From an uncultured Duodenibacillus sp. (GTDB lineage: Bacteria > Pseudomonadota > Gammaproteobacteria > Burkholderiales > Burkholderiaceae_F): a stretch of 64,000 nucleotides of DNA. This document shows positions 20,245 through 50,568 of this stretch, piece by piece; within the stretch, counting starts at the first letter, position 1; each line of letters opens with the position of its first letter. The notes under the pieces were generated by a model. That model had not been told where the DNA came from. It saw only the letters and a list, made by a program, of their open reading frames with translations, and ran no database searches. A program made the position numbers and the translations under genes. Location: contig CALXQK010000012.1 of assembly GCA_944390745.1 (NCBI GenBank), forward strand, positions 343-64,342, written 5' to 3'.

Positions 20245-20492
20245 AATTCATCACAGTTTCTTGACGCACGTCACAAGAACCGACAGTCCCAGCGCGCGGC
20301 CTGCGCCGCACGCGGCCGCGCAGGGAGCGTTGCAGTCCGGACGCACCGAAGCCCGCGCACGCGAATCTTTTGCACCCCCGGCCGATGCCTGCCGCCCAAA
20401 GTGCTTTAGCATTGACGGCTGACTGATTTCTTCCCCTTTCCACTCCCTTTTGGCATGTCCGGCCGGTCATCTGCGGCCGCCCTCTTTCTGTG

Positions 20493-23111
20493 ATGATCGA
20501 CACCCGAGTCAAGCGCTTTGTTCTGGGCTTTATCGTTCTCGTCGCCGTGCTGTGTCTGGCGGCGGTTTGCGCGCTCTTTGTCTGGGTCAATGAAAAGGCG
20601 GTGCAGCGCACGATCGAGGACTTTTCCGCGCAGGCGCTCTCGGCCGACGTGCGCTTTGAGGGGCCGGTGAAGATTCAAAGGCTCTCCACGCTCAAGATCG
20701 CGCTGCCGGCCATGACCTTCACGGACAGGGAGAGCGGCGCGCTGATCGGGCGCATCGCCTCGGCGCACGCCGACGTCTCGATCTGGTCTCTGGCGCTTGG
20801 AGCCGTGCACGTTCATTCCGCTGAAATCGACGGACTGGAGGGGACGCTGTCAGTGCCCGCCCTCTCTGGAAACGCCCTCTTTGAATCCACCTTCGGCAGC
20901 GTGCGCTTTCCCGACAGCCTTCGCGTCTCAAGCCTGAACCTCACCCGCGCCCGCTTCACGCTTGAAGTCGCCGCCCACGAAAGGGCGCAGCGGTTTCTTC
21001 TCACGGATCTGAGCCTCTCGCTCGGGCGCTTCTCGCCCGAGATGACGACGCCCTTTGAGCTCTCCACGCGCCTGGAGGCGCTCGATGAGAGCGGCCGCGT
21101 CGTGCCGATGCCCGAGCTTGAGATGCCCGCCGCTGCACCGGCCGAGCCCGCCGGCGCAGCCGACGCATCCAATGTCGGAGCGGGACCCGCTGCTCCGGCC
21201 GCTGAATCTGCACCGCAGGAGTCGACCGAAGCTTCGGAAAAGCCCTCTGCCGAGGCGCCTTTGGGGCCCTCCGCCGACACGTCGGCCGGGGCCTCTTCCG
21301 ACAATCAGTCCGAGGCTGCGCAAGGCCGGGAGTCTGCCGCAGGGGAGTCCTCCGCCGAGGCCGCCATGGACGCCGGCGCCCCGGCCGAGCCTGTCCAGGG
21401 CGAGACCGCCGGGCCTGAGTCCGCCCCCGCCGCGGAGGCGCCCGCCGATGCCGGTGCGCCTGAGGCGCACGGGGATGCGGCTTTGCCCGAATCCGCTCCC
21501 GCCCAGCCCGCCGCAGGGGACGCTGCCGCCCCTGCGATTCTCTCCTGGCTCGGTGCGGCGCACGCGCAGTCCCTGCCCGAAGGATCCGGGGAGTCTGCCG
21601 CCGGTGCAGCAGCCTCCGCCGCGACCCCGGCGCAGTCCATTTTCGAGGGATTTGATCCGAGCAGGCTTTCGGCCATGCTCTCGGCCAAGGGGACGCTCAC
21701 GATCTCCACGGCCAACCGCTACGTTCTCTTTGAAAACCTCAGCTTCTCGGGCGAAGTCTTCTACGGCGGGGAGGTCTTCACGACCGTGGCCCGCGCCGAC
21801 GTGCTGCGCTTCAAGGGTGAGGAGCTCTCGGGCATGAACGCCTCGCTGTCGCTGTCGCGCCCGCAGCAAAGCTCGGGCGACATGCAGTTTGCCGCGGCCG
21901 ACTTCCGACTGCGCCCGGGCGTGCTTGAAAGCCCCGAGATGCGCTTTGAGCACAGCCGCACCGAAGACGGCCGCACCACGAGTCTTTCGCTGGCAAGCAC
22001 CGTGACGGCCGATCTCAAGTCGGGGGCAATTGACTGCGACAGCTTCACCGCACGCGTGACGGTCACGGGCGACAAGACGCTTCCGTCCGACTTTGAAGCT
22101 TCGCTCTCGGGCTTTGTGCGTGCGCGCCTTGCGCAGCGCGAGGCGCGCGTGGGGCTCTCCGGGTCCTTTGCCGGAGCGCCGGTCTCCTACAACGGCGACA
22201 TCGTTCTCACCGACATCGCGCGGCTGCGCGGCGACCTGATGCTCGGAGATCTGGACACGGCGCGGCTGCCCGCCATTCAAAACCTCGACTGGCTGCAGCA
22301 GCTTGACTTCACCGGGACGCTTCGCATCGCCAACATCACCTCCGGACCCTTTACGGCCACGCAGCTGCACGCGCAGCTCACCGCCGGCGAAGGGCGTCTG
22401 CATCTGTCCGATCTGATCGTCAACGTCGCCGACGGGCGCGTGCTGGGCGAACTTGCCCTGGCAAGCACGGGCGACTGGGTCTTCGAGGGCCGCGTCGACG
22501 GCTCGGGACTTGACAAGCTGATGGCGGGCCTCGGAGCCTCGCCGCTCATCTCGGGCGTTGCAAGCGGCCCCCTGGTGATTTCCGGCCGCAGGCTCGATGC
22601 GGCCTCGCTTGAGGCCTCCTGCTCGCTTTCGGTTCTGCGCGGCGCCTATCACGGGCTTGACCTTGAGGCCGCGCGCCGCGTGGTGCTCAAGACCGCTCCT
22701 GAAAGCGACATCACCCGCCCGGGCGCCCGGACCGCCTTTGACGAGGCCTCGGCGCAGCTCTCGCTTAAGAACCGCACGCTCACGATCGGCTCGATCTCGG
22801 CGCGCTCGGTGTACCTCAAGAGCACCGGCAGCGTGCGCGCCGACCTTGCCGCGGGCACTGTCGAGGGCAGCATGAAGAGCACCTTTGCGCCGCTGCACGG
22901 CGAGCCGGCGATCTACCTCTCGGCCGAGCTCTCGGGCTCGGGTCTTGCGCCCGCATGGACGTTTGACTTCGCGCGCTCGGGCCAGGCACTGAGCCGCGCG
23001 CAGGGCCGCCCGCTTCTCAAGCCCGGCCGCCCCGCCCAGGAAGGCGCGCAGGACAAGCCCGCCGAGAGCCGCAGCCTCTGGCAGAGCGTGCGCGACTTCT
23101 TCAAGTTCTAG
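20493..23111 (+). CDS. AsmA-family outer-membrane biogenesis/lipid-transfer protein with a large low-complexity insert
   Basis: N-terminal anchor 'FVLGFIVLVAVLCLAAVCALFVW'. AsmA-like N- and C-terminal regions ('GEGRLHLSDLIVNVADGRVLGELAL'). The central A/E/S/P-rich stretch of about 180 aa is low-complexity. Confidence 0.7.
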   Translation: MIDTRVKRFVLGFIVLVAVLCLAAVCALFVWVNEKAVQRTIEDFSAQALSADVRFEGPVKIQRLSTLKIALPAMTFTDRESGALIGRIASAHADVSIWSLALGAVHVHSAEIDGLEGTLSVPALSGNALFESTFGSVRFPDSLRVSSLNLTRARFTLEVAAHERAQRFLLTDLSLSLGRFSPEMTTPFELSTRLEALDESGRVVPMPELEMPAAAPAEPAGAADASNVGAGPAAPAAESAPQESTEASEKPSAEAPLGPSADTSAGASSDNQSEAAQGRESAAGESSAEAAMDAGAPAEPVQGETAGPESAPAAEAPADAGAPEAHGDAALPESAPAQPAAGDAAAPAILSWLGAAHAQSLPEGSGESAAGAAASAATPAQSIFEGFDPSRLSAMLSAKGTLTISTANRYVLFENLSFSGEVFYGGEVFTTVARADVLRFKGEELSGMNASLSLSRPQQSSGDMQFAAADFRLRPGVLESPEMRFEHSRTEDGRTTSLSLASTVTADLKSGAIDCDSFTARVTVTGDKTLPSDFEASLSGFVRARLAQREARVGLSGSFAGAPVSYNGDIVLTDIARLRGDLMLGDLDTARLPAIQNLDWLQQLDFTGTLRIANITSGPFTATQLHAQLTAGEGRLHLSDLIVNVADGRVLGELALASTGDWVFEGRVDGSGLDKLMAGLGASPLISGVASGPLVISGRRLDAASLEASCSLSVLRGAYHGLDLEAARRVVLKTAPESDITRPGARTAFDEASAQLSLKNRTLTIGSISARSVYLKSTGSVRADLAAGTVEGSMKSTFAPLHGEPAIYLSAELSGSGLAPAWTFDFARSGQALSRAQGRPLLKPGRPAQEGAQDKPAESRSLWQSVRDFFKF

Positions 23112-24082
23112 CCCGCCCGGTCAAAGGCGCGCTCAACCGTGTGCCGCGCCGCGGCGCTGCGCTCAAGAAAGTCCCTCGCCGCGGCCTGCGCCAGCCACTG
23201 CGCAAAGCAGCGCACATCCACGTCCTTGATGTCGCGGTCGGTGCGCGTGATGATGCACATGGTCCAGGCCTGCCGCTCCCAGCCGCGCAGGATCGGCACG
23301 ATCATCCCCGAGCTGATCTCCTCGATGACGTGTCCGCAGTAGAGGTCCGTCGTGATGCCGAGCCCCCCGAGCAGAAGCTCCTTGAGCGTGAACTGGTCGT
23401 GCGTCGAGAAGGTCTTTCTCCACTTCAAGAGCGCGCTCGGCACGCCGTCGCGAAAGAGAAACTGCGAGGGCTTTCGATTGATGGTCTGAAAGAGCAGCCC
23501 GGTGTGCTCGACGAGATCGGCTGGCGTCCTCGGGCAGCCGTTCTTGGCAAGATAGTCCGGTGCGGCGAGCACCGGCGTGGTCGACGTGTTGTAGGCGCGC
23601 ACGAAGATGTCCGCACCGGCGCCCGAAGTCTGCGGACGGTGGTTCATCACCGCGACGTCCACGTCGCCCGAGAGCACCGCGTCGACGCGCACCTCCGGAA
23701 AGACCTGAAACTCAATGCCTGGATGCGCGACGGAGTAGTCGTACAAAAGACGCGAGAAGTACTCCTGCTCAAGCTCAATGGGGGCGGCAAAGCGCAGCAC
23801 CCGGCGCCTTGCCGGCGCCTGCGAGCGCTCCTCGATCATCTGCCGAAAGCCCCGCACGAGGGGCTCGGCCTGCCGCACGAGCTCGCTGCAGCGCTGCGTC
23901 GGGGCAAAGGGGCGCCGGGACCGGTCAAAGAGCCTCGCGCCGAGCTCCTCCTCAAGGCCTGATATCCAGCGCGAGACCCGCGGCAGGTCCGTCTGCATGA
24001 GCTCGGCCGTGCGCGAGATGTTTCCGGTCCGGGCCGTGATCACCACGGCCTCCCAGGCAAGCAAGTTGTTCCTGCAGTTCAT
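23108..24082 (-). CDS. LysR-family transcriptional regulator
   Basis: N-terminal HTH 'ISRTAELMQTDLPRVSRWISGLEEELGARLFDRSRRPFAPT' plus a LysR substrate-binding-type C-terminus. It is divergent from the molybdoenzyme operon. Confidence 0.85.
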   Translation of the reverse strand: MNCRNNLLAWEAVVITARTGNISRTAELMQTDLPRVSRWISGLEEELGARLFDRSRRPFAPTQRCSELVRQAEPLVRGFRQMIEERSQAPARRRVLRFAAPIELEQEYFSRLLYDYSVAHPGIEFQVFPEVRVDAVLSGDVDVAVMNHRPQTSGAGADIFVRAYNTSTTPVLAAPDYLAKNGCPRTPADLVEHTGLLFQTINRKPSQFLFRDGVPSALLKWRKTFSTHDQFTLKELLLGGLGITTDLYCGHVIEEISSGMIVPILRGWERQAWTMCIITRTDRDIKDVDVRCFAQWLAQAAARDFLERSAAARHTVERAFDRAG

Positions 24083-24622: not shown

Positions 24623-27304
24623 ATGGAAATGTCCGCGATCAATCGCCGCAGCTTTCTGAAGGCGACGGCCGTGACCGGCGTCGCGGCGGCTCTGAGCGAG
24701 TCGCTGCCGGGCGGCCTCGTTGAGGATGCCCGCGCCGCTGCGGAAAAGCCTGCGGCCAAGGACGAGACCAAGATCGTCAAGACCTGCTGCCGCGCCTGCA
24801 TTCACAACTGCGGCGTGCTCGCGCACGTCAGAAACGGCCGCGTCGTCAAGCTCGAGGGCGACCCCGACTACCCGATGAGCAAGGGCGCCATGTGCGCCAA
24901 GGGCCTGGCCGGCATCTCGGCACTCTATCACCCCAACCGCAACAAGTACCCGCTCATCCGCGCCGGAAAGCGCGGCGAGAACAAGTGGAAGCGCATCACT
25001 TGGAAGGAAGCCATCGACATCATCGCCAAGAAGCTCATGGACACCCGCGCCAAGTACGGCGCCGAGGCCGTCATGGTGTCGACGGGCGGCGGCGGCAACC
25101 CGGCCTTCCGCGGCGTCTCGCGCTTCTGCAACGCCTTCGGCACGCCGAACTTCTACGAACCGGGCTGCGCGCAGTGCTGGCTGCCCCGCACGCTCACGTA
25201 CGACCTGATGTACGGCGGCCCGGGCCCGAGCATCGCCGACGAGCAGTGCCGCGAGATCTACAACCCCGACACCAAGATCAAGACCATCGTGCTCTGGGGC
25301 ACGGACGCAAGCTACAGCAACCCCGCCGGCGGCGGACGCGCGCTCGTTGAGCTGCGCGCCAAGGGCGTCAAGACCGTCTCGATCGACCCGCGCTTTGTGC
25401 CCGACGCCGCGCGCGCCGACGTGTGGCTGCCGATCCGCCCGGGCACCGACGTGGCGCTGATGCTCACCTGGATTCGCTACATCATCGACCGCAAGATCTA
25501 CGACCGCGACTTTGTGCTGCGCTGGACGAACCTGCCCTTCCTCGTCAACACCAAGACGAAGATGATCTACATGGCCAGCGAGGTCGATCCCAAGGCCGAT
25601 CCCAAGACCCCGATGGTCTGGGACGCCAAGACGAAGTCGGCCAAGCCCCTGCCCTATCCCTGGGACGACAATCTCGATCCGGCTCTCGAGGGCGCCTTCA
25701 CGATCAACGGCGTCGAGTACAAGACGGGCTTTACGCTTCTGAAGGAGCGCGCCGAGCCCTGGACGCTTGAAAAGGGCGCCGAGGTCTGCTGGCTTGACGC
25801 CAAGAAAATTGAGGAGGCCATCAAGCTCTACGCCGACGGTCCCTCGGGCATCTCCCTGGGCGTCGCCACCGACCAGAGCCCCAACTCCGTGCAGGCCGCC
25901 ATGGGCGTGTGCCTCATCGAGTCGCTGATGGGCAATGTCGAGAAGCCCGGCAACTTCATGCAGCGCAACCCGACGAGCAACGTCGTGCCCTCGGGCAGTC
26001 TTGCCACCCGCTGCTCCTACCTGCTGCCCAAGGGCCAGCTCAAGAAGCGCATCGGCTCCAACGAGCACAAGGGCCTCATGCAGTGGGACGCCGCGCAGCC
26101 CTCGGCGCTTCTCAACGCCATCCTCACCGGCAAGCCCTACCCGATCAAGGTCTGGCTGGAGCGCTCGGGCAACAAGTTCGTCGTCAACGCCAACGCCGGC
26201 TCCTGGGTGGCGGCCTTCGACAAGCTCGACTTCGTGATGCACATGTACATGTACCCGACCTCGTTCTCGGCCTACGCGGACATGCTGCTGCCCGCCACCG
26301 AGTGGCTTGAGACGAACATGCTCGTCGAGTGCATGAACACCGTCTTCGCCCGCCAGGCGGTCACCCACCTGTGGGAGACCGAGGACGAGACGCTCATGTG
26401 GTCGAAGGTGATCAAGAAGTGCGCCGAGCTCGGCAACGAGAACTGCAAGCGCGCCTGCGATCCGAAGTTCATGAAGGACGACCTCGCCTACTGGGATTCG
26501 ATGGAGGAGCTGCTCGACCAGCGTCTGGCCCGCATCGGCCTCACCTGGAAGGAGCTGCTTGCCAAGAACGGCCCCGTGGAGTACATGCCCTACGAGAAGT
26601 GGAACCAGTACTACGTCTACAAGAAGGTCGATCCGAAGACGGGGCTGCCTCAGGGCTTCCGCACGCCCTCAAGAAAGCTCGAGCTCTACGGCGAGCGCTT
26701 CATCAAGCTCGGCCGCACGGGCGAGCCCTATGCGCTCGACGAGGTTCCGCCCGTTGAGAAGGACTACGATCCGCTGCCCTACTACCTCGAGCCCAGCGAG
26801 AGTCCCAACGATCCGAAGGTCGCCGGAGAATATCCGCTCACCATGACCAACGGTCGTCTGCCCATTTACCACCACGGCACGCTGCGCAACGTTCCGTACC
26901 TGCGCGAGATCATGCCCACGGCCGAAATCTGGATCAACCCCGAAACGGCCGCCAAGAACGGCATCGCCCAGAACGACTGGGTCTGGGTTGAGTCTCCGCG
27001 CGGCAAGATCCGCGCACGCGCGCGCCTTACCGAGAGCATGAACCCGCGCGTGGTCTACATGGAGCGCTTCTGGAACCCCGAGACGCTCAACACGAAGACC
27101 CACGGCTGGCAGGAGGAGAACGTCAACGTTCTCTCCAAGAACACGCCGCCCTTCAACGACGTTGTGGGCACCTACACGCTGCGCGGCTACCAGGTGAAGA
27201 TCTACAAGGCCGACGGCGCCCCCGAGGGCGTCTGGACCAAGCCCGAGGATTTCAAGCCGTGGATGCCTCAGCCCTCGGATCCGACCAAGAATGTGGAGTT
27301 CTAA
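24623..27304 (+). CDS. Periplasmic molybdopterin (bis-MGD, DMSO-reductase superfamily) oxidoreductase, catalytic subunit; substrate unknown
   Basis: Tat signal 'MEMSAINRRSFLKATAVTGVAAA'. N-terminal FS0 motif C-X2-C-X3-C-X27-C ('CCRACIHNCG...GAMCAKG'). 893 aa. SD AGGAGA lies 8 nt upstream of the ATG. Confidence 0.85.
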   Translation: MEMSAINRRSFLKATAVTGVAAALSESLPGGLVEDARAAAEKPAAKDETKIVKTCCRACIHNCGVLAHVRNGRVVKLEGDPDYPMSKGAMCAKGLAGISALYHPNRNKYPLIRAGKRGENKWKRITWKEAIDIIAKKLMDTRAKYGAEAVMVSTGGGGNPAFRGVSRFCNAFGTPNFYEPGCAQCWLPRTLTYDLMYGGPGPSIADEQCREIYNPDTKIKTIVLWGTDASYSNPAGGGRALVELRAKGVKTVSIDPRFVPDAARADVWLPIRPGTDVALMLTWIRYIIDRKIYDRDFVLRWTNLPFLVNTKTKMIYMASEVDPKADPKTPMVWDAKTKSAKPLPYPWDDNLDPALEGAFTINGVEYKTGFTLLKERAEPWTLEKGAEVCWLDAKKIEEAIKLYADGPSGISLGVATDQSPNSVQAAMGVCLIESLMGNVEKPGNFMQRNPTSNVVPSGSLATRCSYLLPKGQLKKRIGSNEHKGLMQWDAAQPSALLNAILTGKPYPIKVWLERSGNKFVVNANAGSWVAAFDKLDFVMHMYMYPTSFSAYADMLLPATEWLETNMLVECMNTVFARQAVTHLWETEDETLMWSKVIKKCAELGNENCKRACDPKFMKDDLAYWDSMEELLDQRLARIGLTWKELLAKNGPVEYMPYEKWNQYYVYKKVDPKTGLPQGFRTPSRKLELYGERFIKLGRTGEPYALDEVPPVEKDYDPLPYYLEPSESPNDPKVAGEYPLTMTNGRLPIYHHGTLRNVPYLREIMPTAEIWINPETAAKNGIAQNDWVWVESPRGKIRARARLTESMNPRVVYMERFWNPETLNTKTHGWQEENVNVLSKNTPPFNDVVGTYTLRGYQVKIYKADGAPEGVWTKPEDFKPWMPQPSDPTKNVEF

Positions 27305-27919: not shown

Positions 27920-28741
27920 ATGGGCGAAGGATCGATCACTCTGACGCTGTTCAACGTACTGCTCACCTGCTCGGCGGGCCTCATGGCCGCCGCAGCCCTC
28001 GCCGAGCGCGCCAACCTTCCGGTGCGCGTGCTCGCGGCAGCGGCCGCGGCCGCCCTCGTCTGCCTTGCGGCGGGCGGTGCGGCGGCCCTGGCCAACCTCG
28101 GCCGGCCGGCCCTGATCTTCGGCGTGCTCTCCAACCCGGGGACGCCGATCTTCGAGCAGTTCGTCGCGCTGATGGCGTTTGCAGCGGCCATCCTCGTCTA
28201 TCTCGTGCTGCTTTACCGCGGCGCCGAGAACGCCGTCACCTTCCGGACGGCCTGCGTCGCCTCGCTGCTCGGGCTGGTGCTCGTGGTGATTCTCGGCAAA
28301 AGCCTCGTCATGCCCTGGCGCGCCGCCTGGAACACCTACACGATCATCCTCGGCCCCGCGGCCTGGATGGCGCTCATGGCAGCCTCGTGCTACGCCCTCA
28401 TGGCCTGGCGCTCTGAGGACGATCCGCACCCCGTGCGCATTGCCGTGTGCGCCGTCGCGGCGCTTGCCGCCGCGGCGGTCTACCTCGCCGCCCTGGCTGT
28501 GTCGGGCAGCCCCGAGGCGCTCGGCGCGGTCAACCGCGCGCTGAGCGGCGACGCGGCCGGGCTTCTGTGGCTGGGCATCGTCGTCTGCGGAGCGCTCGTT
28601 CCCCTGGCGGCGGCATTTTTTGCGCACCGCGCTCCGGCCGCCGGCGGGATCATCGCCCTGGCGGGCGCGCTCGTCGGCTGCGGGGCGGGCCACCTTCTGG
28701 TGACGGCCCTGGGCTCGCGCACCTGGGAGTTCTTCGGCTAG
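27920..28741 (+). CDS. DmsC-type membrane anchor subunit
   Basis: 273-aa ORF with about 8 hydrophobic helices and no cofactor motifs. It is in third position of an A-B-C arrangement. Confidence 0.7.
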   Translation: MGEGSITLTLFNVLLTCSAGLMAAAALAERANLPVRVLAAAAAAALVCLAAGGAAALANLGRPALIFGVLSNPGTPIFEQFVALMAFAAAILVYLVLLYRGAENAVTFRTACVASLLGLVLVVILGKSLVMPWRAAWNTYTIILGPAAWMALMAASCYALMAWRSEDDPHPVRIAVCAVAALAAAAVYLAALAVSGSPEALGAVNRALSGDAAGLLWLGIVVCGALVPLAAAFFAHRAPAAGGIIALAGALVGCGAGHLLVTALGSRTWEFFG

Positions 28742-28863: not shown

Positions 28864-29601
28864 ATGAATCAGCAGGACGCTCTCGCACTGCAGCAGCGCG
28901 GCGAAATGTACCGGCTCCTGAGCCGGTTCTTTCGCACGGAAATCACCGCGCAATGCCTCGACGGCCTCAAGCAGATGCAGTTTCCCGGCGGAAGCGCCGA
29001 TGAAAACCCTCTGGCCGAGGGCTTTGCGCGCATCCGCGCCTATCTCGATGCGCCGCACGAGGATGCGCTCACGGAGCTCGCCGTCGACTACGCCTCGGCC
29101 TTTCTGGGCGCGGGAAAAATGCGCGCCGCCTATCCCTATGAGTCGGTCTATACGAGCCCCGAGCGGCTCGTGATGCAAAACGCCTGGGAGGAGGTGTGCG
29201 CGATCTACCGCACCCATGGCCTGGCCTGCAGCGATCACCGCGACGTCCTTGAAGACCACCTCGCGCTTGAGCTTGAATTCATGGCGCGGCTCACCGACAA
29301 CGCGCTTGCCGCGCTCAAGGCCGGCGACCGCCAGGCGCTCGCGGCGGCCCTCGAGGAGCAGCAGTCGTTTCTGAAGGCGCACCTGCTCAACTGGATCAGC
29401 TCCTTTGCCCACGAGGCGCGCGAATACATCGAGACCGACTTCTACCGCGGCGCGGTGGACGTGACTGAAAAATTCCTCTCGATGGACGCGGCAATCTTGG
29501 ACGACCTTCTTGCGGAGGTCCGCGCCGAGCCGGCCGCCGGCGGCGCGGCGCAGGACAAGTCCTCGCCCGCGGTCCCGGAGACCGCGCAGCAGAAGGCCTG
29601 A
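28864..29601 (+). CDS. TorD/DmsD-family redox enzyme maturation chaperone
   Basis: I prefer the ATG at 28864 ('MNQQDALALQQRGEMYRLLSRFF'). Family motif 'LEDHLALELEFMARL'. The track ORF start at 28447 overlaps dmsC and is rejected. Confidence 0.7.
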   Translation: MNQQDALALQQRGEMYRLLSRFFRTEITAQCLDGLKQMQFPGGSADENPLAEGFARIRAYLDAPHEDALTELAVDYASAFLGAGKMRAAYPYESVYTSPERLVMQNAWEEVCAIYRTHGLACSDHRDVLEDHLALELEFMARLTDNALAALKAGDRQALAAALEEQQSFLKAHLLNWISSFAHEAREYIETDFYRGAVDVTEKFLSMDAAILDDLLAEVRAEPAAGGAAQDKSSPAVPETAQQKA

Positions 29602-29649: not shown

Positions 29650-30423
29650 GTGCATGGGATGCGTGAAGACAGCAGACGCACGGACGCAAAGAACCCGGAC
29701 GAGGCCCGAGACCGCCTCCCGGGGGCGTCGACAGCGAATCGCCGCGCACCCCTGGGCATGCAGCGCCGCGACCTGTGCGCGGCCGCCGCGGGCACGGCTG
29801 CGCTTTTTCTTCTCGGCGCCGCAGGGCGCGCCTCGTCTGCGCAGCGTCCCGTGCGGCCTCCGGGAGGACAGAATGAGGCCGAGTTTCTGGCGCGCTGCAT
29901 TCGCTGCGACCGGTGCCGGAGCATCTGCCCCACCTCGGCCATCGGCGTGGGCACGATCGCTGGCGGCCTTGTGCAGATGCGCACCCCGGTGATGGTCTTT
30001 CTTTCGGGCGACTGCGACTTCTGCCGCAAGTGCGTCGAGGTCTGTCCCACCGGGGCGCTGCAGGACTTTGATCCCGACACGGCCAAGATCGGCACGGCCG
30101 AACTGACCGACAGCTGCATTGCGCTGCGCACCGGGGGCTGCACGAAGTGCTACGAGATGTGCCCCTACGACGCCATCTCCCTTAGCGACACCATGGCGCC
30201 CGTCATCGACGCCGGGCGCTGCAACGGCTGCGGCACGTGCGTGAAGGTTTGCCCGGCCAACGTCTTTCAGGCCTTCAGGGGAGAGGCGGTGCGCGGCGTT
30301 CGCATCGCCGCCTCCGAAAAGACCCTGCGCACGGACGCCACGGCGCGCGACGAGACGCCCAACGCGCTTCCCGGCCGCTCCCCGGCGCAGCCCCCAGAGT
30401 CCGGCGGGAGGGCGAATTCATGA
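29650..30423 (+). CDS. NapG/MauM-like periplasmic four-cluster ferredoxin (Tat-exported)
   Basis: Twin-arginine region 'MQRRDLCAAAAGTAALFLLGAAG'. Clusters 'CIRCDRCRSICP', 'CDFCRKCVEVCP', 'CTKCYEMCP', 'CNGCGTCVKVCP'. The true start may be 29659 or 29758. Confidence 0.7.
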   Translation: MHGMREDSRRTDAKNPDEARDRLPGASTANRRAPLGMQRRDLCAAAAGTAALFLLGAAGRASSAQRPVRPPGGQNEAEFLARCIRCDRCRSICPTSAIGVGTIAGGLVQMRTPVMVFLSGDCDFCRKCVEVCPTGALQDFDPDTAKIGTAELTDSCIALRTGGCTKCYEMCPYDAISLSDTMAPVIDAGRCNGCGTCVKVCPANVFQAFRGEAVRGVRIAASEKTLRTDATARDETPNALPGRSPAQPPESGGRANS

Positions 30424-32780
30424 AGCTCAAGCCATCCGCGCTGCGCACCGCCACGGCGCTTTTCTTCATTCTGGCGGTCATCGTCGGGCTTATTTTCCAC
30501 ACGGGCTGGGGGACGCTCTCCTCGTTCGGCATCGGCGCCATCGCCGCCATCTGCCCACTGGGCGCGCTGGAGATGAGTCTTGCCGACGGCGCGCTGCTGC
30601 CGCGCGTTCTCATCGGCTTTGTCGTCTTTCTGGCCGTAACGGCCCTTTTCGGGCGCATCTTCTGCGGCTGGGCCTGCCCGGTGCCGCTCATTGAGCGCGC
30701 CGCAGGCAAGAAACGCACGATCGCCATCCATGCGCAGTCCTGCACCCGCAACAAGGAGCAGAGCCCGGGCGACTGCACGCACAACTGCAGCGCCTGCAGC
30801 GCGTCCGCGGGCGACTCCGGCGCGGCCGGCAAAAAGCCCGCCCGCGCCCCGTACTTCATTCTGGGCGGCGCGCTTGTCTCAAGCGCCGTCTTCGGCTTTC
30901 CGGTCTTTTGCCTCATCTGCCCGGTGGGCCTGACGTTTGCGCTCATCATCGGCCTGTGGCAGCTCTTTGCCTTCAACGCCGGCTCCTGGTCGCTTGCCTT
31001 CTTCGCGGGCTTTCTCGTGCTCGAGATCTTCGTGTTGCGGCGCTGGTGCGGCAGCTTCTGCCCGCTCGGGGCGCTCATTTCCATCATGGCGCGCTTGAAC
31101 CGCTTCTGGCGTCCGAAGATTCATCCGCAGGCCTGCCTTGCGTCCTCGCGCGGACTCGACTGCCGCGTCTGCCGCTCGGTCTGCCCGGAGGGGATTGATC
31201 TCACGGCGCCCTGCGTTTCAGACGAGCTGATGGCGCGCTGCACGAAGTGCCGCGCCTGCGCCGAGGCCTGCCCGGCGGGCGCCATTTCCTTCCCCTTCCA
31301 GAAAATCACCCGGCCCAGGACGGCTCCGGCCATGGCCGCGCGCCGCGATCCTGCAGAGCTGCCCGTTGAGGTGCGCCGCAGCACCTTTGCCGAGGTCTGC
31401 GGCGGGCTGACCGCAGCCGAGGCGCAGGAGCAAAGCGCCCGCTGCATCGGATGCGGGGCGTGCGAAAAGGCCTGCCCGCAAGGCAATCCGATTGTCTCGG
31501 TGCTCTCGCTCGTGTCGCAGGCGCGCACGCGCGAGGCCGCCGCCGCGCTGCTTGTTCCCGGCGCCATGCCCGAAATCTGCGGCCGCGTCTGCCCCCAGGA
31601 GCGGCTCTGCGAGAGCGCCTGCCCCCTCGGGCAGGATCCGGCGCTCGGCGGCCCGCTTCCGATCGGCGCCCTGACGCGGTTTGCCGCCGACACGGTGCTT
31701 GCGCGCGGATGGCGCCCCGCAAGGGCCCGCCGCAAGTCCGGCCGCAGGGCGGCCGTGATCGGCTCGGGTCCCGCGGGCCTCGCGGCGGCCGACGTGCTCG
31801 CGCAGGCCGGGCATGAGGTCACGATCCTTGAGGCGCTGCCGCACGCCGGGGGCCTTCTTTCCTGGGGCATTCCGGCCTTCAAGCTCGACCCCCTCGTCGT
31901 TGAGCGGCGCATCGGCTTTCTGAAGCATCTCGGCGTGACGCTGCGCACCGGCGTCAGCGCGGGCGCTGCCGAGGGCGCGGATCCTGAGACAATCCTCAGG
32001 GACTTTGATGCGGTTTTTGTCGCCTGCGGCGCGCAGTCGCCCTCCGGACTCTTTCTCGAGCCCGGAAAAGATGCCGTCAACGGCACGGACGTCGTGCAGG
32101 CGCTTGACTACCTGCGCGAGGCCGCGCAGCTCGTTCGCGACGCCCGCAGCCGCACCGCGCCCGGCCGACGGCGCCGGCGCGCCGCAGCAGCCTCGCCCGA
32201 ACCCGAGGTCATTGACACGCGCCTGAACGTGCGCGGCCGCCGCGTGGCGGTGCTCGGAGGCGGCGATACGGCGATGGACTGCCTGCGCACCGCCATCCGC
32301 GAGGGCGCCCGCAGCGCCGCGTGCATCTATCACCATGACCGCGCGGCCATGCACGCCGCCGGCGCCGAGGTGCGCCGAGCCCGCGAGGAGGGCGCCGAGT
32401 TTTTCTTCAACGCCGAGGTTGCCGGGCTTGCCCGCGCAGCCGACGGCATGCTCACGGGCGTCATCGTCCGGCAGGGCGGGGCCGCCCCCCGGACGATTGA
32501 GGCCGACCTGGTGATCGTCGCCTACGGCTTTCACTGCGCTGCGGCGCCGTGGCTTGAAAAGGCGGGCGTTGCCCTCGATGCGCAGGGCCGCATCATCACC
32601 GGCGACGGGGGCGTCGACGGGCGCACCACGAACCCGAGGATCTTTGCCGCGGGCGACGCGGTGCACGGCGCCGATCTCGTCGTCACCGCGCTTGCAGACG
32701 CCCGCAGGGCCGCGAAGTCCATGTGCGCCCTGCTCGACGAAGACCGTCCGGGGAAAGCCGCACCGCACGCCCGAGCCTGA
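30420..32780 (+). CDS. Fusion protein: NapH-like membrane Fe-S protein (N-terminal) + GltD/SudA-like NAD(P)H-dependent FAD/Fe-S oxidoreductase (C-terminal)
   Basis: The ATG at 30420 overlaps the napG-like stop (ATGA). Four TM segments with the NapH-type 'CGWACP' and 'CGSFCP', then 'CRVCRSVCP' and 'CTKCRACAEACP'. GltD-type 'RCIGCGACEKACP ... CGRVCPQERLCESACPLG', 'AVIGSGPAGLAAA' and 'VAVLGGGDTAMDC' follow. Confidence 0.75.
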   Translation: MKLKPSALRTATALFFILAVIVGLIFHTGWGTLSSFGIGAIAAICPLGALEMSLADGALLPRVLIGFVVFLAVTALFGRIFCGWACPVPLIERAAGKKRTIAIHAQSCTRNKEQSPGDCTHNCSACSASAGDSGAAGKKPARAPYFILGGALVSSAVFGFPVFCLICPVGLTFALIIGLWQLFAFNAGSWSLAFFAGFLVLEIFVLRRWCGSFCPLGALISIMARLNRFWRPKIHPQACLASSRGLDCRVCRSVCPEGIDLTAPCVSDELMARCTKCRACAEACPAGAISFPFQKITRPRTAPAMAARRDPAELPVEVRRSTFAEVCGGLTAAEAQEQSARCIGCGACEKACPQGNPIVSVLSLVSQARTREAAAALLVPGAMPEICGRVCPQERLCESACPLGQDPALGGPLPIGALTRFAADTVLARGWRPARARRKSGRRAAVIGSGPAGLAAADVLAQAGHEVTILEALPHAGGLLSWGIPAFKLDPLVVERRIGFLKHLGVTLRTGVSAGAAEGADPETILRDFDAVFVACGAQSPSGLFLEPGKDAVNGTDVVQALDYLREAAQLVRDARSRTAPGRRRRRAAAASPEPEVIDTRLNVRGRRVAVLGGGDTAMDCLRTAIREGARSAACIYHHDRAAMHAAGAEVRRAREEGAEFFFNAEVAGLARAADGMLTGVIVRQGGAAPRTIEADLVIVAYGFHCAAAPWLEKAGVALDAQGRIITGDGGVDGRTTNPRIFAAGDAVHGADLVVTALADARRAAKSMCALLDEDRPGKAAPHARA

Positions 32781-32825
32781 CAGTTTTGCGCATCCGCCGA
32801 ATCCTTTTTCCAACGTTTTCGCACC

Positions 32826-33962
32826 ATGCCTGCAACCCGGTCCGGGGGCGCCGCCCAGGGCGCCCCCAAAATCGCTCCCACCGTTCCCATCATCGTGCGC
32901 AAGCGCTGCCTGCATGCGCGCCATGTCGCCTCGCGCTGCACGCGCTGCATTGACGTGTGCGGCGCCGGCGCCCTGCGTCTTGTCGAGCAGCAGCTCATCA
33001 CCGACTCGCGCCGTTGCTCGTCGTGCGGCGCCTGCGTTGCGGCCTGCCCGACCGAGGCGCTTTACGCGGTCGTGCCCGAGACGCATGCCCTCGCGCAGGA
33101 GATTGCCGCACAGGCCCGCAACGGCGCCGTGCGCATCAGCTGCACGATGGCGCAGCTGCCGCCCTCCGAGGCGGGCACCCGGGTGCCGTGTCTGGCACGT
33201 CTGTCGCCCGGCATGCTGATCGATGCCGTGGAGTCCGGCGCGGATTGTCTGCAGCTCACGTGCGGCGTCTGCTCGACCTGCTCCCGGCGCCCGAAGACCG
33301 ATGTTGTTGAGGAGGCGCTGCAGCGCGTGCGCGCCTGGCTTGCCGCCCGCGGCCGCAGGGTCCTCGACGCGCCGCCCCATCCAGGCGGCGGCGATGAGGC
33401 GGCCGGCGCCGTTGTCCTGCACCTCACAAGGCACGCGCACGGCATGAACTCGGCGCGCCGCGCCGCCCTCGGGCGGCTTCTCGGCATCGGCGCCAGCGCC
33501 CTTGACCGCGAGCCCTTCAGGCTGCCGGCTGACTTCAGGGACAAGCTCGAGGCCATTCGCGCCGAACCCCTCGTGCGCATTCCCGAGCCGCAGAAGGCGC
33601 GCCTGCGGCGCTTTCAGAAGGGCACGCCTGAAACGCGCGAGGCCTTTGCGCTTGACGCTCCCGTCATCGACGCCGAGGCCTGCGCCTGCTGCGGGCTGTG
33701 CGCCGACATGTGCCCCTCGGGGGCCCTGAAGATGCTCTCGCAAAATCCCTGCCGCATCATTGCCAGTCCCCTGCTGTGCTGCGGCTGTCGGCTGTGCGCG
33801 GACCTTTGCTTCAAGGACGCGGTCACCCTTGAAAGGGCCTCCACGCCCGAGGAGGCCGCCGCACGCGTCGTGCTCGAGAAGTCCGTCGGGGACGATCCGA
33901 TGGCCGTCTGGGAGGACAAGCTCGGGCGGCTTCTCGGCGACGTGCCGATCTACCGCAGCTAG
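32826..33962 (+). CDS. Cytoplasmic multi-cluster 4Fe-4S (polyferredoxin-like) protein
   Basis: 'RCTRCIDVCGAGAL', 'CSSCGACVAACPTEAL', 'CACCGLCADMCPSGAL', 'CCGCRLCADLCFKDA'. The N- and C-terminal ferredoxin modules are separated by about 200 aa of unrecognised sequence. No signal peptide. Confidence 0.6.
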   Translation: MPATRSGGAAQGAPKIAPTVPIIVRKRCLHARHVASRCTRCIDVCGAGALRLVEQQLITDSRRCSSCGACVAACPTEALYAVVPETHALAQEIAAQARNGAVRISCTMAQLPPSEAGTRVPCLARLSPGMLIDAVESGADCLQLTCGVCSTCSRRPKTDVVEEALQRVRAWLAARGRRVLDAPPHPGGGDEAAGAVVLHLTRHAHGMNSARRAALGRLLGIGASALDREPFRLPADFRDKLEAIRAEPLVRIPEPQKARLRRFQKGTPETREAFALDAPVIDAEACACCGLCADMCPSGALKMLSQNPCRIIASPLLCCGCRLCADLCFKDAVTLERASTPEEAAARVVLEKSVGDDPMAVWEDKLGRLLGDVPIYRS

Positions 33963-34063
33963 CTGGCTGCGCCGCACGCTCGCTCTTCGGTTTTCCAATG
34001 CAAGGACGGCCGGACGCCCGCCACAGGGGTGTCCGGCCGTCTTGTCAAGAGCGCAGCGGCTCG

Positions 34064-34987
34064 TCAGTTTTCGGAGCCGTGCCCGCCGCAATGGCAGTGC
34101 CCGTGGCCGTGGCCGCGGCCGTGTCCATGACCGCCGCAGCCGCAGCCGCCGTCGCCGGCGTGCGCATCCTCGTGCCCGCGGCTGCCGCAGGCGTCTTCAT
34201 GCCCGCCGCAGCAGCCCTCGTCCGAAGCCCCGTGATGATGCCCGCAGCAGCCGGAGGCCGCCGAGGCGTCAACGGGCTTGAGCGCTCCGGCGATGAGTGC
34301 TTCCACCGCCGCGTCAGCCGATCCTGCTGCGCCGGCATAAAGGCGGATGCCCGCCTGCGCAAGCGCGGCCGCGGCCCCGCCTCCAATGCCGCCGCAGATG
34401 ACGGCGTCCACATTGTTCTTGACAAGCAGGTTGACCATGGCGGCATGTCCGTGGCCGCTTGCAGGGACAACCTCGGACGATGCAGCCGCGCCGTCAGCAA
34501 TCGTGTAAATCTTCATGGCCGGAGCCTTGCCGAAATGACCGAAGACCTGGTCTTCAAAAAAAGGAACGGCAACCTTCATGATGCAGCCTCCCAAGGCGTT
34601 CAAATCCAATGACCCGCGGGCGCCCGTCCTTTGACGGCAACACCCGGGGCACCTGCAGCCGGCCTCGGATTCCTGCCGCGTACAGACCCGGTAGCGGCCG
34701 CCCTCGATGACGAGCTCGCGCCCGTTGACGATCGCATCGGCAATCTTGAAGCGCGCCCGCTCGTAGATCTCGGTGGCCGTCGTGCGCGAGATCTGCATGC
34801 GGGCGGCGCATTCCTCGTGCGAACGCTTGAGCAGGTCCACGATGCGCACCGCCTCATATTCATCGACAAAGAGGACGACGCGCCCGGACGGCGCAGCCTG
34901 CGGGCCTGGGGCGCCGCCGGCAAGCGGACCAAATCGTGAGAAAAGCGGCTCGGCACAAACGCGGCGGCAGCGGGAGGGTCTGGGCAT
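34064..34987 (-). CDS. DUF134 (UPF0251) DNA-binding-like domain fused in frame to a NifX/NifB-type (dinitrogenase Fe-Mo cofactor family) domain with a Cys/His/Gly-rich tail
   Basis: 'MPRPSRCRRVCAEPLFSRFGP...VLFVDEYEAVRIVD...ISRTTATEIYERARFKIADAIV' is DUF134. 'MKVAVPFFEDQVFGHFGKAP...VDAVICGGIGGGA' is NifX_NifB-like. The tail is 'CCGHHHG...GHGHGRGHGHGHCHCGGHG'. An internal GGAGG lies 7 nt before the ATG at 34579. Confidence 0.65.
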   Translation of the reverse strand: MPRPSRCRRVCAEPLFSRFGPLAGGAPGPQAAPSGRVVLFVDEYEAVRIVDLLKRSHEECAARMQISRTTATEIYERARFKIADAIVNGRELVIEGGRYRVCTRQESEAGCRCPGCCRQRTGARGSLDLNALGGCIMKVAVPFFEDQVFGHFGKAPAMKIYTIADGAAASSEVVPASGHGHAAMVNLLVKNNVDAVICGGIGGGAAAALAQAGIRLYAGAAGSADAAVEALIAGALKPVDASAASGCCGHHHGASDEGCCGGHEDACGSRGHEDAHAGDGGCGCGGHGHGRGHGHGHCHCGGHGSEN

Positions 34988-35210
34988 GGCAGAAGAAACG
35001 ATTCCGACAAATGACGGATTCAATCTTAGGACGAAAAATCCCCGCACGCAAGCCCCGTCAGGGGACCGACGCAGGAAAATCCTCTCAAGACCGGCCGCAG
35101 AAGCTCGCCCGGGGCCTCACGCGCGCATCACGCGGGCGCGCGGCGACTGTTGCGCCGCCGCGGCAAAAGGAGTCCTCAGCCCGCAGGGGCCGGGAATGCG
35201 CAGGATGCGC

Positions 35211-36810: not shown

Positions 36811-37434
36811 CTACTTGCGCACGGCGTACTTGGCGGCCAGCGCCTCAAGATAGGCGGGCACCTTTTCATCAGACCAGTCCACGAAGCCGCGCACGAACCC
36901 CACGAGGTTGCCCTTGCCGTCGAGCACGAAGACGCTCGGCACGACGTCAAGCGGCGCGTCATCGCCAATCTTCTGCTCAGGGTCGATCAGGGTGCTGAAG
37001 CCCTCGAGGTTGTAGCGCTTGATGAAGTCCTCGACGTCGCTCTTTTTCTGATCCACCGAGACCGACACCACGCGAATGGGGCTCTCAGGCTTGTTGTAGC
37101 GCTCCTGCAGCTTCTTGATCATCGGCAGCGACCGGATGCATGGCTCGCACCACGAGGCCCAGACGTCAATCAGCACGAGCTTGTCCTTGAAGCCGTTCAA
37201 GGCGTACTTCCCGCCCTTGAGATCCTCGAGCTCGGCCGTGGAGAAGCCGCGCGCGTTTCTGAGCTCAATAAAGGTGCGCAGCACCCCGGGCTTGCCCGCG
37301 ACGGGCTCGCCGTTGGCGTAGAGCTTGTGCTGAAAGCCCGGCAGCTCATTGACGTCCAGGGCGAGCGCCGGAGCGCTCGCGGCCATCTGCAGGCCGAGCG
37401 CCAGGGCAAGGGCAAGCATCCATTTCTTCATCAT
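36811..37434 (-). CDS. TlpA/ResA/CcmG-like periplasmic thiol:disulfide oxidoreductase
   Basis: Signal peptide 'MMKKWMLALALALGLQMAASAPALA' and the thioredoxin motif 'WASWCEPC'. Its ATG overlaps the upstream stop (ATGA). Confidence 0.8.
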   Translation of the reverse strand: MMKKWMLALALALGLQMAASAPALALDVNELPGFQHKLYANGEPVAGKPGVLRTFIELRNARGFSTAELEDLKGGKYALNGFKDKLVLIDVWASWCEPCIRSLPMIKKLQERYNKPESPIRVVSVSVDQKKSDVEDFIKRYNLEGFSTLIDPEQKIGDDAPLDVVPSVFVLDGKGNLVGFVRGFVDWSDEKVPAYLEALAAKYAVRK

Positions 37435-37877
37435 CAGTCTCCTCGTTTATTGTTGGATTGTTCACTGCCCGCCTGCGGGCGAAGGCGCCAGCGGCGCCAC
37501 AAAAAGAATGCCGCCGCCGCGGCTGCAAGCCACGGCGCCGCCCAGAGCAGCGCCGTGCCGCTGTTGAGATCGGGCTCGTAGCGGATCATTTCGCCGTAGC
37601 GCGCCACCATGCCGTCGAAGATCTCCTCGCGGGTCTTTCCCGCGCGCAGCTCTTCATAAATGCGCGCCTTGAGCTCGGAGGCAACGGCGCTCTCCGAGTC
37701 AAAGAGCGTGTAGTTGGCCGAGGCCGGATCGCGCAGCAGCTTGGAAATTGCAATGGCCTCCTCGTTGAGCGCCTGGCCCTGAAGGGGCGCGCGGGTCTCG
37801 GCGGCAGCCGCGCCCGCCGCCGTCGCCAGCACGAGGACCGCGGCGCAAAGCGCCGCCATGCATCGGATCTTCATCAT
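37434..37877 (-). CDS. CcmH/NrfF-like cytochrome c maturation protein lacking the CXXC motif
   Basis: 'SELKARIYEELRAGKTREEIFDGMVARYGEMIRYEPDL..TALLWAAPWL' matches the CcmH/NrfF core and C-terminal TM. Where LRCxxCQ is expected, the sequence reads 'LLRDPASANYTLFDSES'. Confidence 0.7.
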   Translation of the reverse strand: MMKIRCMAALCAAVLVLATAAGAAAAETRAPLQGQALNEEAIAISKLLRDPASANYTLFDSESAVASELKARIYEELRAGKTREEIFDGMVARYGEMIRYEPDLNSGTALLWAAPWLAAAAAAFFLWRRWRLRPQAGSEQSNNKRGD

Positions 37878-39796: not shown

Positions 39797-39823
39797 GATT
39801 CAAGCTTCCTATCTTTCGCCTTC

Positions 39824-40627: not shown

Positions 40628-40628
40628 G

Positions 40629-41564: not shown

Positions 41565-41580
41565 GACGGATTCCTTCTTC

Positions 41581-45175: not shown

Positions 45176-45177
45176 CT

Positions 45178-45864: not shown

Positions 45865-45918
45865 ATTTTTCTCCAGAAGCGAATCCCGCTGCGATGCAGC
45901 TGCAGCCGGATCCGCCGA

Positions 45919-46584: not shown

Positions 46585-46608
46585 GTTTTCAAAGAGCGCT
46601 CCCCGTCA

Positions 46609-47376: not shown

Positions 47377-47438
47377 CTTTTCTTGTTCATTCTCACGAGG
47401 ACCCGCGAGGATCCGCGCATCCAAGGTCTTCAGGGGGT

Positions 47439-47879: not shown

Positions 47880-48008
47880 GATTCCTTCGTATGTTGGCGG
47901 TCAGTGCCCTGCTCCTTGTCCGGGGCCGAAGCCCGGAGGGGATTCCCTCCGGGCCTGCGGCTTGACAGGGAGATTGCGCTGACAGCGGTTGATTGAGCCG
48001 AAAGCGGC

Positions 48009-50063: not shown

Positions 50064-50180
50064 CTCAATCTCCTGATTATTCAGGCCTCTTTTGCTTTTC
50101 TTGCGAAAAAAAGAAGCGGCCGCAGACGCACGCTGTCCAAGCGGTTCGTGCGCTTCGGCTACCTTCAGTTTACGTTAAGG

Positions 50181-50544: not shown

Positions 50545-50568
50545 GAAACCCGCCTTGCGGCGGGTTTC
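50545..50568 (-). terminator. Rho-independent terminator after the flavocytochrome c gene
   Basis: GAAACCCGCC-ttgc-GGCGGGTTTC perfect 10-bp stem. On the minus strand it is followed by TTCGTTCTG. It lies 27 nt after the stop at 50596. Confidence 0.6.

Follow-up and report, generated by a model that had tools for sequence, protein, structure and literature searches.

Proteins of the NapH type (e.g., NapH, NosR, NirI, RdhC, and DadhH) occur in many respiratory systems, where the roles of their CX3CP motifs and cytoplasmic iron-sulfur (Fe-S) clusters have long been unsettled. In general terms, NapH-like proteins are viewed as modular, transmembrane electron-transfer devices (PMC8238504). The NapH of Escherichia coli and Wolinella succinogenes has four helices, two CX3CP motifs, and a C-terminus with two [4Fe-4S] clusters, and it is encoded just downstream of NapG, a four-cluster protein exported by the twin-arginine translocation (Tat) pathway. 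A comparable pair is found in the cassette of a molybdoenzyme, a catechol dehydroxylase, of Eggerthella lenta; this cassette comprises DadhABC, the TorD-like DadhF, the NapG/NapH-like ferredoxins DadhG/DadhH, and the ferredoxin DadhI (JACS 2025; PMC11887054). In that work, dadhB and dadhD-H, including the NapG/NapH-like dadhG/H in vivo, were indispensable, dadhC and dadhI were dispensable, and AlphaFold3 set DadhG/H against DadhB/C as a potential electron path. GltD-like modules, in turn, render NAD(P)H-derived reducing equivalents accessible via [4Fe-4S] clusters of low potential, and the hosts listed for them in a 2021 review are glutamate synthase (GltS), dihydropyrimidine dehydrogenase (DPD), Nfn, and AegA/YgfT only (PMC8097209). 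Here, we describe a gene in which a NapH-like protein is fused to a GltD-like module. It lies in a 64,000-nt stretch of Duodenibacillus sp. DNA (contig CALXQK010000012.1; hereafter, the window), and all window coordinates refer to this whole stretch.

The fusion gene (Table 1) is a single open reading frame (ORF) of 786 codons with no internal stop. Its ATG and the TGA of the upstream, NapG-like ORF share an ATGA overlap, and a Shine-Dalgarno sequence, GGGAGGG, is located 7 nt 5' of the start. In Pfam, the translated protein matches Fer4_5 twice, a Fer4 dicluster (residues 273-355), Fer4_20 (320-430), and Pyr_redox_2 (444-760). The NCBIfam models gltD_gamma_fam (306-773; 380 bits), AegA (295-773), and NapH (140-293; 70 bits) also match, and all three score below their curated cut-offs. 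An initial annotation had described a NapH-type module running without interruption into a complete GltD-type module, and the single ORF, its domains, and the motifs given below bear this out. The NapH-like part closes with a ferredoxin domain whose cluster motifs are C239/C248/C251/C255 and C274/C277/C280/C284. The annotation had assigned two cytoplasmic clusters of the form CX2CX2CX3CP to this part; both clusters are there, but the first reads CX8CX2CX3CP. Beyond this domain, no column of the fusion alignment is invariant between P292 and R341, and a GltD chain from the Protein Data Bank (PDB; 6s6s_G of entry 6s6s) aligns to residues 306-770 (phmmer, E = 1.2e-69).

The sequence and fold features that define a GltD-like module are present in the C-terminal half, including the Fer4_20 ligands (C342/C345/C348/C352 and C391/C397/C401 together with E398), a GxGxxG flavin adenine dinucleotide (FAD) motif (AVIGSGPAGLAAA, residues 445-457, 31752-31790), a GGGDTAxD NAD(P)H motif (VAVLGGGDTAMDC, residues 609-621, 32244-32282), and an adrenodoxin-reductase-like fold. 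Both of the nucleotide sites claimed earlier have therefore been located. Specifically, G448/G450/P451/G453 and G613/G615/D616/T617/A618/D620 are the invariant residues of the dinucleotide sites, and in 19 fusion proteins sharing 43-68% identity with the window protein, no variation occurs in any Fe-S ligand or in either dinucleotide motif. An AlphaFold2 (AF2) model built from a 45-sequence alignment has a mean predicted local distance difference test score (pLDDT) of 84.5 and a predicted TM-score (pTM) of 0.85, with pLDDT falling below 50 only at residues 29-36, in the loop at 101-137, and in the final six residues. With Foldseek, the C-terminal half matches NfnI-L (5jfc_L) and GltD (6s6s_E) with TM-scores of 0.85-0.86, and DPD with 0.85. 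All 50 of the Foldseek matches listed fall on the GltD-like half and none on the membrane half. Likewise, a PDB sequence search with residues 1-330 retrieved generic ferredoxin motifs only, so that for the four-helix domain neither search gave a structural relative. Opposite the fusion gene, a 957-aa antisense ORF (31218-34091, minus strand) is a by-product of high G+C content instead of a gene (first-position G+C of 0.84; rich in Arg, Gly, and Ala), as are the other long antisense ORFs.

Hydropathy and the numbers of Lys plus Arg residues in successive loops (3/0/0/10/0/6) fit four helices with the N- and C-termini inside, in agreement with the four transmembrane segments claimed originally and with the topology prediction that had been called for. 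Since both termini are inside by topology, the flavoprotein half would be cytoplasmic. The motifs CGWACP (C82/C86) and CGSFCP (C210/C214) belong to a set of seven membrane Cys residues, arranged as C45-P, C82x3C86-P, C164x2C167-P, and C210x3C214-P, that are invariant in 45 sequences, fused and unfused. For comparison, the NapH of the nap operon in a related genome (L007; 19008-19892, minus strand) has four membrane Cys in just two CX3CP motifs and lacks equivalents of C45, C164, and C167. In the AF2 model, C45 and C164/C167 are situated at helix breaks (between 38-44 and 46-56, and between 162-166 and 168-185, respectively), which suggests re-entrant hairpins. The initial annotation had also drawn attention to a Cys-rich insert between the second and third helices. 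This stretch is indeed present in the window protein (SCTRNKEQSPGDCTHNCSACSAS, residues 107-129), where the loop has four Cys including a CSAC motif, but it is not conserved. At least two Cys occur in the loop in 16 of 21 fused versus 3 of 24 unfused proteins, and loop length ranges from 49 to 108 residues. As judged from the alignments, loop Cys are enriched in the fused clade without being a conserved feature; a role for the loop as a general cofactor site was rejected on account of its variability, its predicted disorder, and the absence of any Cys from it in three fused members.

Several searches show that the fusion recurs. The window protein's cluster at 90% identity has eight further members of 779 or 786 aa from separate NCBI, ENA, and Logan records, and a word-indexed search recovered at least 120 full-length relatives with the same Pfam set. 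In an exhaustive search of 1.84 billion representatives, approximately 27 clusters at 50% identity span the whole protein, and matches beyond these cover the GltD part alone (~470 aa) or the NapH part alone (~290 aa). A genome scan that used one genome per species and a query crossing the junction yielded 31 loci in which the match spans the junction; a further one is truncated by a contig end. All carriers in the scan belong to Sutterella, Parasutterella, Turicimonas, Duodenibacillus, or unclassified Burkholderiales, and isolates are among them (S. wadsworthensis DSM 14016, S. massiliensis An829, S. seckii, T. muris YL45, and P. muris). With the junction intact in separate records and in many species, the fusion gene is real, and the continuity across the junction that the initial annotation had wished to see confirmed is upheld by the ≥90% cluster members, the 31 species genomes, and the ~27 clusters alike. 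In two Sutterella assemblies, one of them a long-read, metagenome-assembled chromosome of canine origin, the fused gene is interrupted, either within the NapH-like part (L025, 8500-10788) or at several places in both parts (L041, 8509-10779); these breaks may represent either pseudogenes or assembly errors.

The fusion appears to be specific to the Sutterellaceae, where it is the rule, and it is abundant in gut metagenomes; the fused loci range in G+C from 46 to 68%. Sutterella, Parasutterella, and Turicimonas are prevalent human gut bacteria. A neighbor-joining tree built on the NapH-like domain groups 20 of the 21 fused proteins in a single clade with no unfused protein nested inside, and the last fused protein branches at the unresolved root, making a single fusion event plausible. 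No homologue was found in E. coli at the DNA level. Full-text literature searches found no published description of a NapH-GltD fusion, and searches on Sutterella and catechol dehydroxylase or on a NapH-family structure turned up no paper on this architecture. The arrangement is conserved yet without a published description that could be found, as had been surmised at the outset, and it is missing from the host list of PMC8097209. It had also been foreseen that the architecture might prove common and already annotated. Although it is not rare, its only database name is "FAD-dependent oxidoreductase".

The fusion is the sixth gene of a seven-gene operon on the plus strand (Table 1). Window proteins were compared with six-frame ORFs of 92 related loci, 79 of which came from the genome scan, and the cassette A-B-C-TorD-like-NapG-like-NapH-like recurs across the loci examined. 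Of the 79 loci from the genome scan, 78 have a NapG-like ORF just 5' of the NapH-like gene, and in nearly every locus with enough flank, a TorD-like gene precedes the NapG/NapH-like pair, with A and B nearby. According to gene calls, the NapG-like and fusion genes overlap by 4 to 8 bases in five other loci. The NapG-like protein likely starts at the ATG at 29758 (MQRRDL...), and its twin-arginine motif, the hydrophobic stretch that follows, and 16 Cys are invariant in 8/8 aligned homologues. Because of the invariant arginine pair and hydrophobic stretch, the protein is predicted to be periplasmic; together with the ATGA overlap, this speaks for the coupled, NapG-like partner reaching into the periplasm that had been proposed initially. 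Its NCBIfam scores (NapF, 84 bits; NapG, 72 bits) are both below cut-off, and it is 32% identical to a NapG encoded in a nap operon.

By sequence comparison, the catalytic subunit A falls in the group of Psr, acetylene hydratase, and catechol dehydroxylase-like enzymes. Among solved structures, acetylene hydratase (2e7z; 192 bits) comes closest to it, with PsrA (2vpw; 184 bits) narrowly behind. The best NCBIfam models are of the PhsA/DmsA type, and NapA scores 139 bits versus a cut-off of 904. Identities amount to 60-76% with other fused loci and 35-49% with Eggerthellaceae cassettes. Catechol dehydroxylases are nearest to acetylene hydratase (PMC7028382), a criterion that the affinity of subunit A fits, and the substrate is not thereby established. 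No signal peptide is present on subunit B, which is probably exported together with A. For subunit C, no Pfam match was obtained in the window, but its counterpart at L010 matches Pfam DmsC (1e-13), as does that at L012. The TorD-like start in Table 1 was adopted from the gene call at L001. A LysR homologue adjoins the cassette in many fused loci, and the polyferredoxin is present in 10/23 fused and 13/43 unfused loci with enough flank. Unfused cassettes occur in Denitrobacterium detoxificans, many other Eggerthellaceae (in which they serve catechol dehydroxylases, often with multiple loci in one genome), Sulfurospirillum, Telmatospirillum, and soil Proteobacteria, and a separate, gltD-like gene that might represent a split precursor was not found within 9 kb in 48 unfused loci. 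Sutterellaceae fusion loci often encode additional molybdoenzyme A/B pairs and, in the case of L007, also a classical napA-G-H-B operon within 10 kb (L007, 1-2219 and 18692-22271; L009, 1-7234; L030, 13946-17247); reductase genes are clustered.

Table 1. Coordinates of the fusion gene, its domains, and the genes of its operon in the window.
Feature	Position	Strand	Basis
LysR-type regulator, divergent from operon	23108..24082	-	HTH_1 and LysR_substrate on matching L001 gene
Molybdopterin subunit A of the bis(molybdopterin guanine dinucleotide) (bisMGD) type, 893 aa, Tat signal	24623..27304	+	Pfam TAT_signal, Molybdop_Fe4S4, Molybdopterin, Molydop_binding
Four-cluster Fe-S subunit B, 197 aa	27308..27901	+	Pfam Fer4_11; NCBIfam ArrB/NrfC/TtrB/DmsB-like, all below cut-off
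Membrane subunit C, 273 aa, divergent DmsC-type anchor	27920..28741	+	BLAST, 27% to same-position L010 subunit
TorD/DmsD-type Tat proofreading chaperone	28864..29601	+	Pfam Nitrate_red_del 9.6e-31; NCBIfam TorD 4.8e-29
NapG-like 4x[4Fe-4S] ferredoxin, twin-arginine signal	29659..30423	+	Four Fer4 stretches; NCBIfam
NapH-like::GltD-like fusion gene, 786 aa	30420..32780	+	Pfam, NCBIfam, homologue sets, AF2 model
Four-helix membrane domain, residues 1-215	30420..31064	+	Pfam Fer4_5 x2; invariant columns; DSSP helices; hydropathy and positive-inside counts
Cytoplasmic loop between helices 2 and 3, residues 88-143, variable, predicted disordered	30681..30848	+	pLDDT 30-45; loop statistics
Cytoplasmic 2x[4Fe-4S] ferredoxin domain closing the NapH-like part, residues 236-293	31125..31298	+	Pfam Fer4_7/Fer4; eight invariant Cys
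Non-conserved, 12-residue linker between modules, residues 294-305	31299..31334	+	GltD alignment begins at 306
GltD-type two-[4Fe-4S] domain	31335..31709	+	Pfam Fer4_20 9.7e-25; invariant columns
FAD and NAD(P)H dinucleotide-binding domains, residues 431-775	31710..32744	+	Pfam Pyr_redox_2 3.5e-24
Cytoplasmic polyferredoxin, 378 aa, optional last cassette gene, DadhI position	32826..33962	+	Pfam Fer4_7/Fer4; weak FlpD match

In its architecture, the membrane half resembles the NapH described above, as both have four membrane-spanning helices and two CX3CP motifs and end in a cytoplasmic 2x[4Fe-4S] domain (eight Cys at 239-284 in the fusion), and it too follows directly on a Tat-exported, four-cluster protein gene. 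Canonical NapH, however, has no flavoprotein module, and the fusion has three extra membrane Cys. Membership among true NapH proteins of nap operons was rejected because the models NF007013 (70.3 vs 234 bits) and TIGR02163 (63.9 vs 213 bits) score far below cut-off. Moreover, the fusion is only 28% identical to the NapH of the Sutterellaceae napA-G-H-B locus in L007, and it is not linked to napA or napB, that locus being a separate one in the related genome. For these reasons, the pair is not the NapGH quinol dehydrogenase of nitrate reductase, the system to which the initial annotation had compared it.

A much closer likeness is seen with DadhG/DadhH of E. lenta, which share both the cassette and its gene order (A, B, C, TorD-like, NapG-like, NapH-like, and optional ferredoxin). 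Over residues 1-300, the fusion shares 38-53% identity and all seven membrane Cys with NapH-like proteins encoded in Eggerthellaceae cassettes. Judging by these alignments and by the published description of the Dadh cassette, the NapG/NapH-like pair belongs to the catechol-dehydroxylase type of accessory cassette. The difference is that unfused NapH-like proteins stop after the 2x[4Fe-4S] domain, at 280-350 aa, whereas the Sutterellaceae protein adds a 480-aa module for NAD(P)H, FAD, and two further [4Fe-4S] clusters.

The GltD-like half likewise has well-known relatives. GltD, NfnB/SudA, and the N-terminal half of DPD share its fold (TM-score of 0.85), its two-cluster domain with seven Cys plus Glu, and its FAD and NAD(P)H motifs. 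DPD also chains FAD to four [4Fe-4S] clusters, and the cofactor set of the fusion (FAD and four [4Fe-4S]) equals those of DPD and AegA. Unlike GltD, NfnB, and DPD, the fusion is without a GltB, NfnA, or dihydroorotate dehydrogenase-like partner. The protein was rejected as a glutamate synthase small subunit proper (380 vs 483 bits for TIGR01318 and 232 vs 448 for TIGR01317, with no GltB-like gene in the cassette) and as part of an NfnAB transhydrogenase (no NfnA, i.e., PyrK-like [2Fe-2S]/FAD, domain in the window cassette or in six homologous loci). AegA/YgfT of E. coli similarly place a [4Fe-4S] ferredoxin domain ahead of a GltD-like domain, but they are soluble and have a HydN-type four-cluster domain where the fusion has a membrane domain and a periplasmic partner. 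Membership in this family was also rejected, as the scores were 341 vs 1003 and 299 vs 1154 bits, only profile positions 180-652 were covered, and the N-terminus is a membrane domain.

Two other groups illustrate how NapH-like and comparable membrane modules acquire additional domains. NosR, NirI, and RdhC (PceC) share the four-helix module with two CX3CP motifs (in NosR together with the cytoplasmic 2x[4Fe-4S] domain), and all are presumed to feed a reductase that is periplasmic or extracytosolic. The additional domain of these proteins lies at the N-terminus, outside the cytosol, and is flavinylated with flavin mononucleotide (FMN), while that of the fusion is C-terminal, cytoplasmic, and pyridine nucleotide-binding. 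Fusions related to NQR and RNF (NqrB/RnfD with an NqrF-type NAD domain; PMC8238504) join a membrane conduit to a cytosolic, NAD(P)H-oxidizing domain, as in the window, and also associate with extracytosolic redox proteins, but the folds are unrelated on both sides.

Taken as a whole, these comparisons suggest, with a probability that we put at roughly 0.55, that the 786-aa protein is the membrane-integral, NAD(P)H-oxidizing electron-input subunit of a periplasmic molybdoenzyme of the dimethyl sulfoxide (DMSO) reductase family that by sequence has acetylene hydratase, PsrA, and the catechol dehydroxylases among its relatives. In this scheme, NAD(P)H would reduce the FAD of the cytoplasmic, GltD-like module, from which single electrons would pass to the two [4Fe-4S] clusters of that module, and then to the two of the adjoining, NapH-type ferredoxin domain. 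From there, they would proceed through the Cys-rich, four-helix membrane domain to the Tat-exported, NapG-like four-cluster ferredoxin, and finally by way of the Fe-S subunit B to the Mo-bisMGD site of subunit A. Wiring from NAD(P)H to the periplasm is the most economical reading of the locus, and we infer from it which way electrons flow, that NAD(P)H is used, and how electrons cross or exit the membrane domain. This last step could be a direct relay via membrane-embedded, Cys-ligated centers or could involve a quinone bound to the NapH-like domain. If crossing were direct, negative charge would move outward and dissipate the membrane potential, and the system would then act as a redox-balancing sink with no energy conservation, and not as a coupling site.

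In favor of this role as electron-input subunit, both modules are complete and are joined end to start by the 12-residue linker, the ligands are invariant, the AF2 model is confident, the topology puts the C-terminus in the cytoplasm, the NapG-like partner is coupled, and the cassette is conserved. The literature adds the indispensability of dadhG/H (PMC11887054), the role of GltD modules (PMC8097209), and the modularity of NapH-like proteins (PMC8238504). Several points weigh on the other side. The fusion protein is known here from its sequence and predicted structure, the membrane domains of the NapH family have no demonstrated redox cofactor, leaving a through-membrane relay unproven, no function has been assigned to the CX3CP motifs of NapH, NosR, and RdhC, and NosR has been reported with only ~8 Fe (PMC5928378). 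In addition, the operon's DmsC-type anchor could deliver quinol electrons on its own, and the unfused cassette works without a GltD module, which makes the fusion an addition and not a requirement. Finally, the region that would contact the 2'-phosphate of NADPH reads YHH in the window protein versus R-R/K in most homologues, rendering the nucleotide preference ambiguous.

A more specific form of this proposal, which we advance tentatively, is that the seven membrane Cys ligate one or two intramembrane Fe-S centers and that the protein is a quinone-independent wire from NAD(P)H to the molybdoenzyme across the membrane. Four of these Cys, in the two CX3CP motifs, would lie at the cytoplasmic face, with C45, C164, and C167 at the helix breaks that resemble re-entrant hairpins. 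If such a wire exists, the CX3CP motifs and cytoplasmic clusters of the NapH/NosR/RdhC family would be explained, and electrons that skip quinone would represent a new way of disposing of NAD(P)H onto extracytoplasmic acceptors.

Quinone could instead be the sole intermediary, a possibility that we consider rather less probable. The fusion would then be a private NAD(P)H:quinone oxidoreductase whose GltD-like module reduces quinone in the NapH-like domain, and the reductase would be supplied from quinol, by way of either the NapG/H-like proteins or the DmsC-type anchor, with no protein-borne electrons crossing the membrane. NapH is indeed regarded as a quinol-binding subunit (PMC5928378, PMC8238504), transfer from NAD(P)H to menaquinone is strongly downhill by established thermodynamics, and 24 of 31 fused loci retain a DmsC-type anchor. 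On the other hand, no NapH-like protein has a defined quinone site. In E. lenta, moreover, the DmsC-type subunit is dispensable and the NapG/H-like proteins are essential (PMC11887054), thereby placing the latter on the path to the enzyme. The two proposals also overlap, as the NapH-like site could exchange with quinone and feed the NapG-like protein as well.

An unlikely alternative is that the NAD(P)H-driven, NapH-like face serves maturation or reductive activation, powering cofactor insertion or Fe-S assembly ahead of Tat export in cooperation with the TorD-like chaperone. The position of the TorD-like gene, directly 5' of the NapG/H-like pair in nearly all loci, is in keeping with this idea. 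There is precedent in W. succinogenes, where the cytoplasmic NapF requires NapH for membrane attachment, docks on it, and aids the maturation of NapA (PMC5928378), and the authors of the E. lenta work state that most accessory proteins act beyond expression, e.g., in cofactor biosynthesis or insertion (PMC11887054). Nevertheless, the N-terminus of the NapG-like partner resembles a twin-arginine signal, and its 16 Cys are those of a periplasmic electron carrier. AlphaFold3 sets DadhG/H against DadhB/C within an electron path (PMC11887054), and a stoichiometric, five-cofactor flavoprotein would be a heavy cost for maturation alone.

The odds are poorer still for flavin-based bifurcation or confurcation, in which an NfnB-like FAD would split NADPH electrons between a high-potential, membrane/periplasmic branch and a low-potential branch to the polyferredoxin or to ferredoxin. 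The bifurcating NfnI large subunit (5jfc_L) is, with GltD, the top structural match, a polyferredoxin with a weak FlpD/MvhD-like match lies 3' of the fusion in the window, and bifurcation has been raised as a possibility for AegA, the function of which is unresolved (PMC8097209). The cassette, however, holds no NfnA/PyrK-like partner, and the N-terminal clusters that form the low-potential branch in Nfn lead here to the membrane domain. Furthermore, the polyferredoxin is missing from 13 of 23 fused loci and its Dadh counterpart is dispensable (PMC11887054).

It is harder yet to argue that the system runs in reverse, with the molybdoenzyme oxidizing a low-potential periplasmic substrate and electrons moving inward to NAD(P)+. 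GltD-like modules are reversible in principle, as in Nfn (PMC8097209), and NapH-like systems also occur with extracytosolic oxidases (PMC8238504), but inward flow would oppose the membrane potential and require a donor below about -320 mV, and subunit A is nearest to reductase and hydratase clades, not to formate dehydrogenases, with the related cassettes being reductases. Finally, a frameshift or assembly error joining two genes is ruled out by the separate records, species genomes, and clusters described above, isolates included, and even L025 and L041, with their broken reading frames, hold no separate, intact GltD-like gene.

The natural, conserved fusion of a NapH-like protein to an NAD(P)H flavoprotein suggests that the cytoplasmic clusters of the NapH family act as a port for cytoplasmic electrons. 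Since NAD(P)H is easily assayed, the fusion offers a single-polypeptide handle on the question of what happens at the cytoplasmic face of NapH. If the protein does serve as an electron-input subunit, this would also provide a reason why heterologous expression of these enzymes requires the NapG/H-like accessory genes. Members of this molybdoenzyme family in Eggerthella transform dopamine and dietary polyphenols.

Several other genes of the window deserve mention. Directly upstream of the LysR-type regulator is an 873-aa ORF (20490-23111, plus strand) with a third-position G+C of 0.82 and no NCBIfam match, the L001 counterpart of which has no Pfam match. Just downstream of the operon, a gene on the minus strand (34064-35047) encodes DUF134 and NifB/NifX-like (Nitro_FeMo-Co) domains and, at the C-terminus, a tail with many His, Gly, and Cys residues (HGHGRGHGHGHCHCGGHG); its product could be a metal- or cofactor-related regulator. 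Farther along, the minus-strand region at 36811-42918 contains genes for cytochrome c maturation, namely the thioredoxin-like CcmG, CcmH, and CcmF, after which comes a nosDFY-like set consisting of genes for an ABC-2 permease, for an ABC ATPase, and for a beta-helix protein that is NosD-like. A second respiratory block (44255-52560, minus strand) encodes NrfD-like membrane and NrfC-like Fe-S proteins (both below cut-off), an NrfG-like heme lyase subunit, an FKBP isomerase, a rhodanese, a 684-aa multiheme cytochrome, and a 654-aa reductase of the flavocytochrome c type (551 bits), in keeping with the large reductase arsenals reported for Sutterella.

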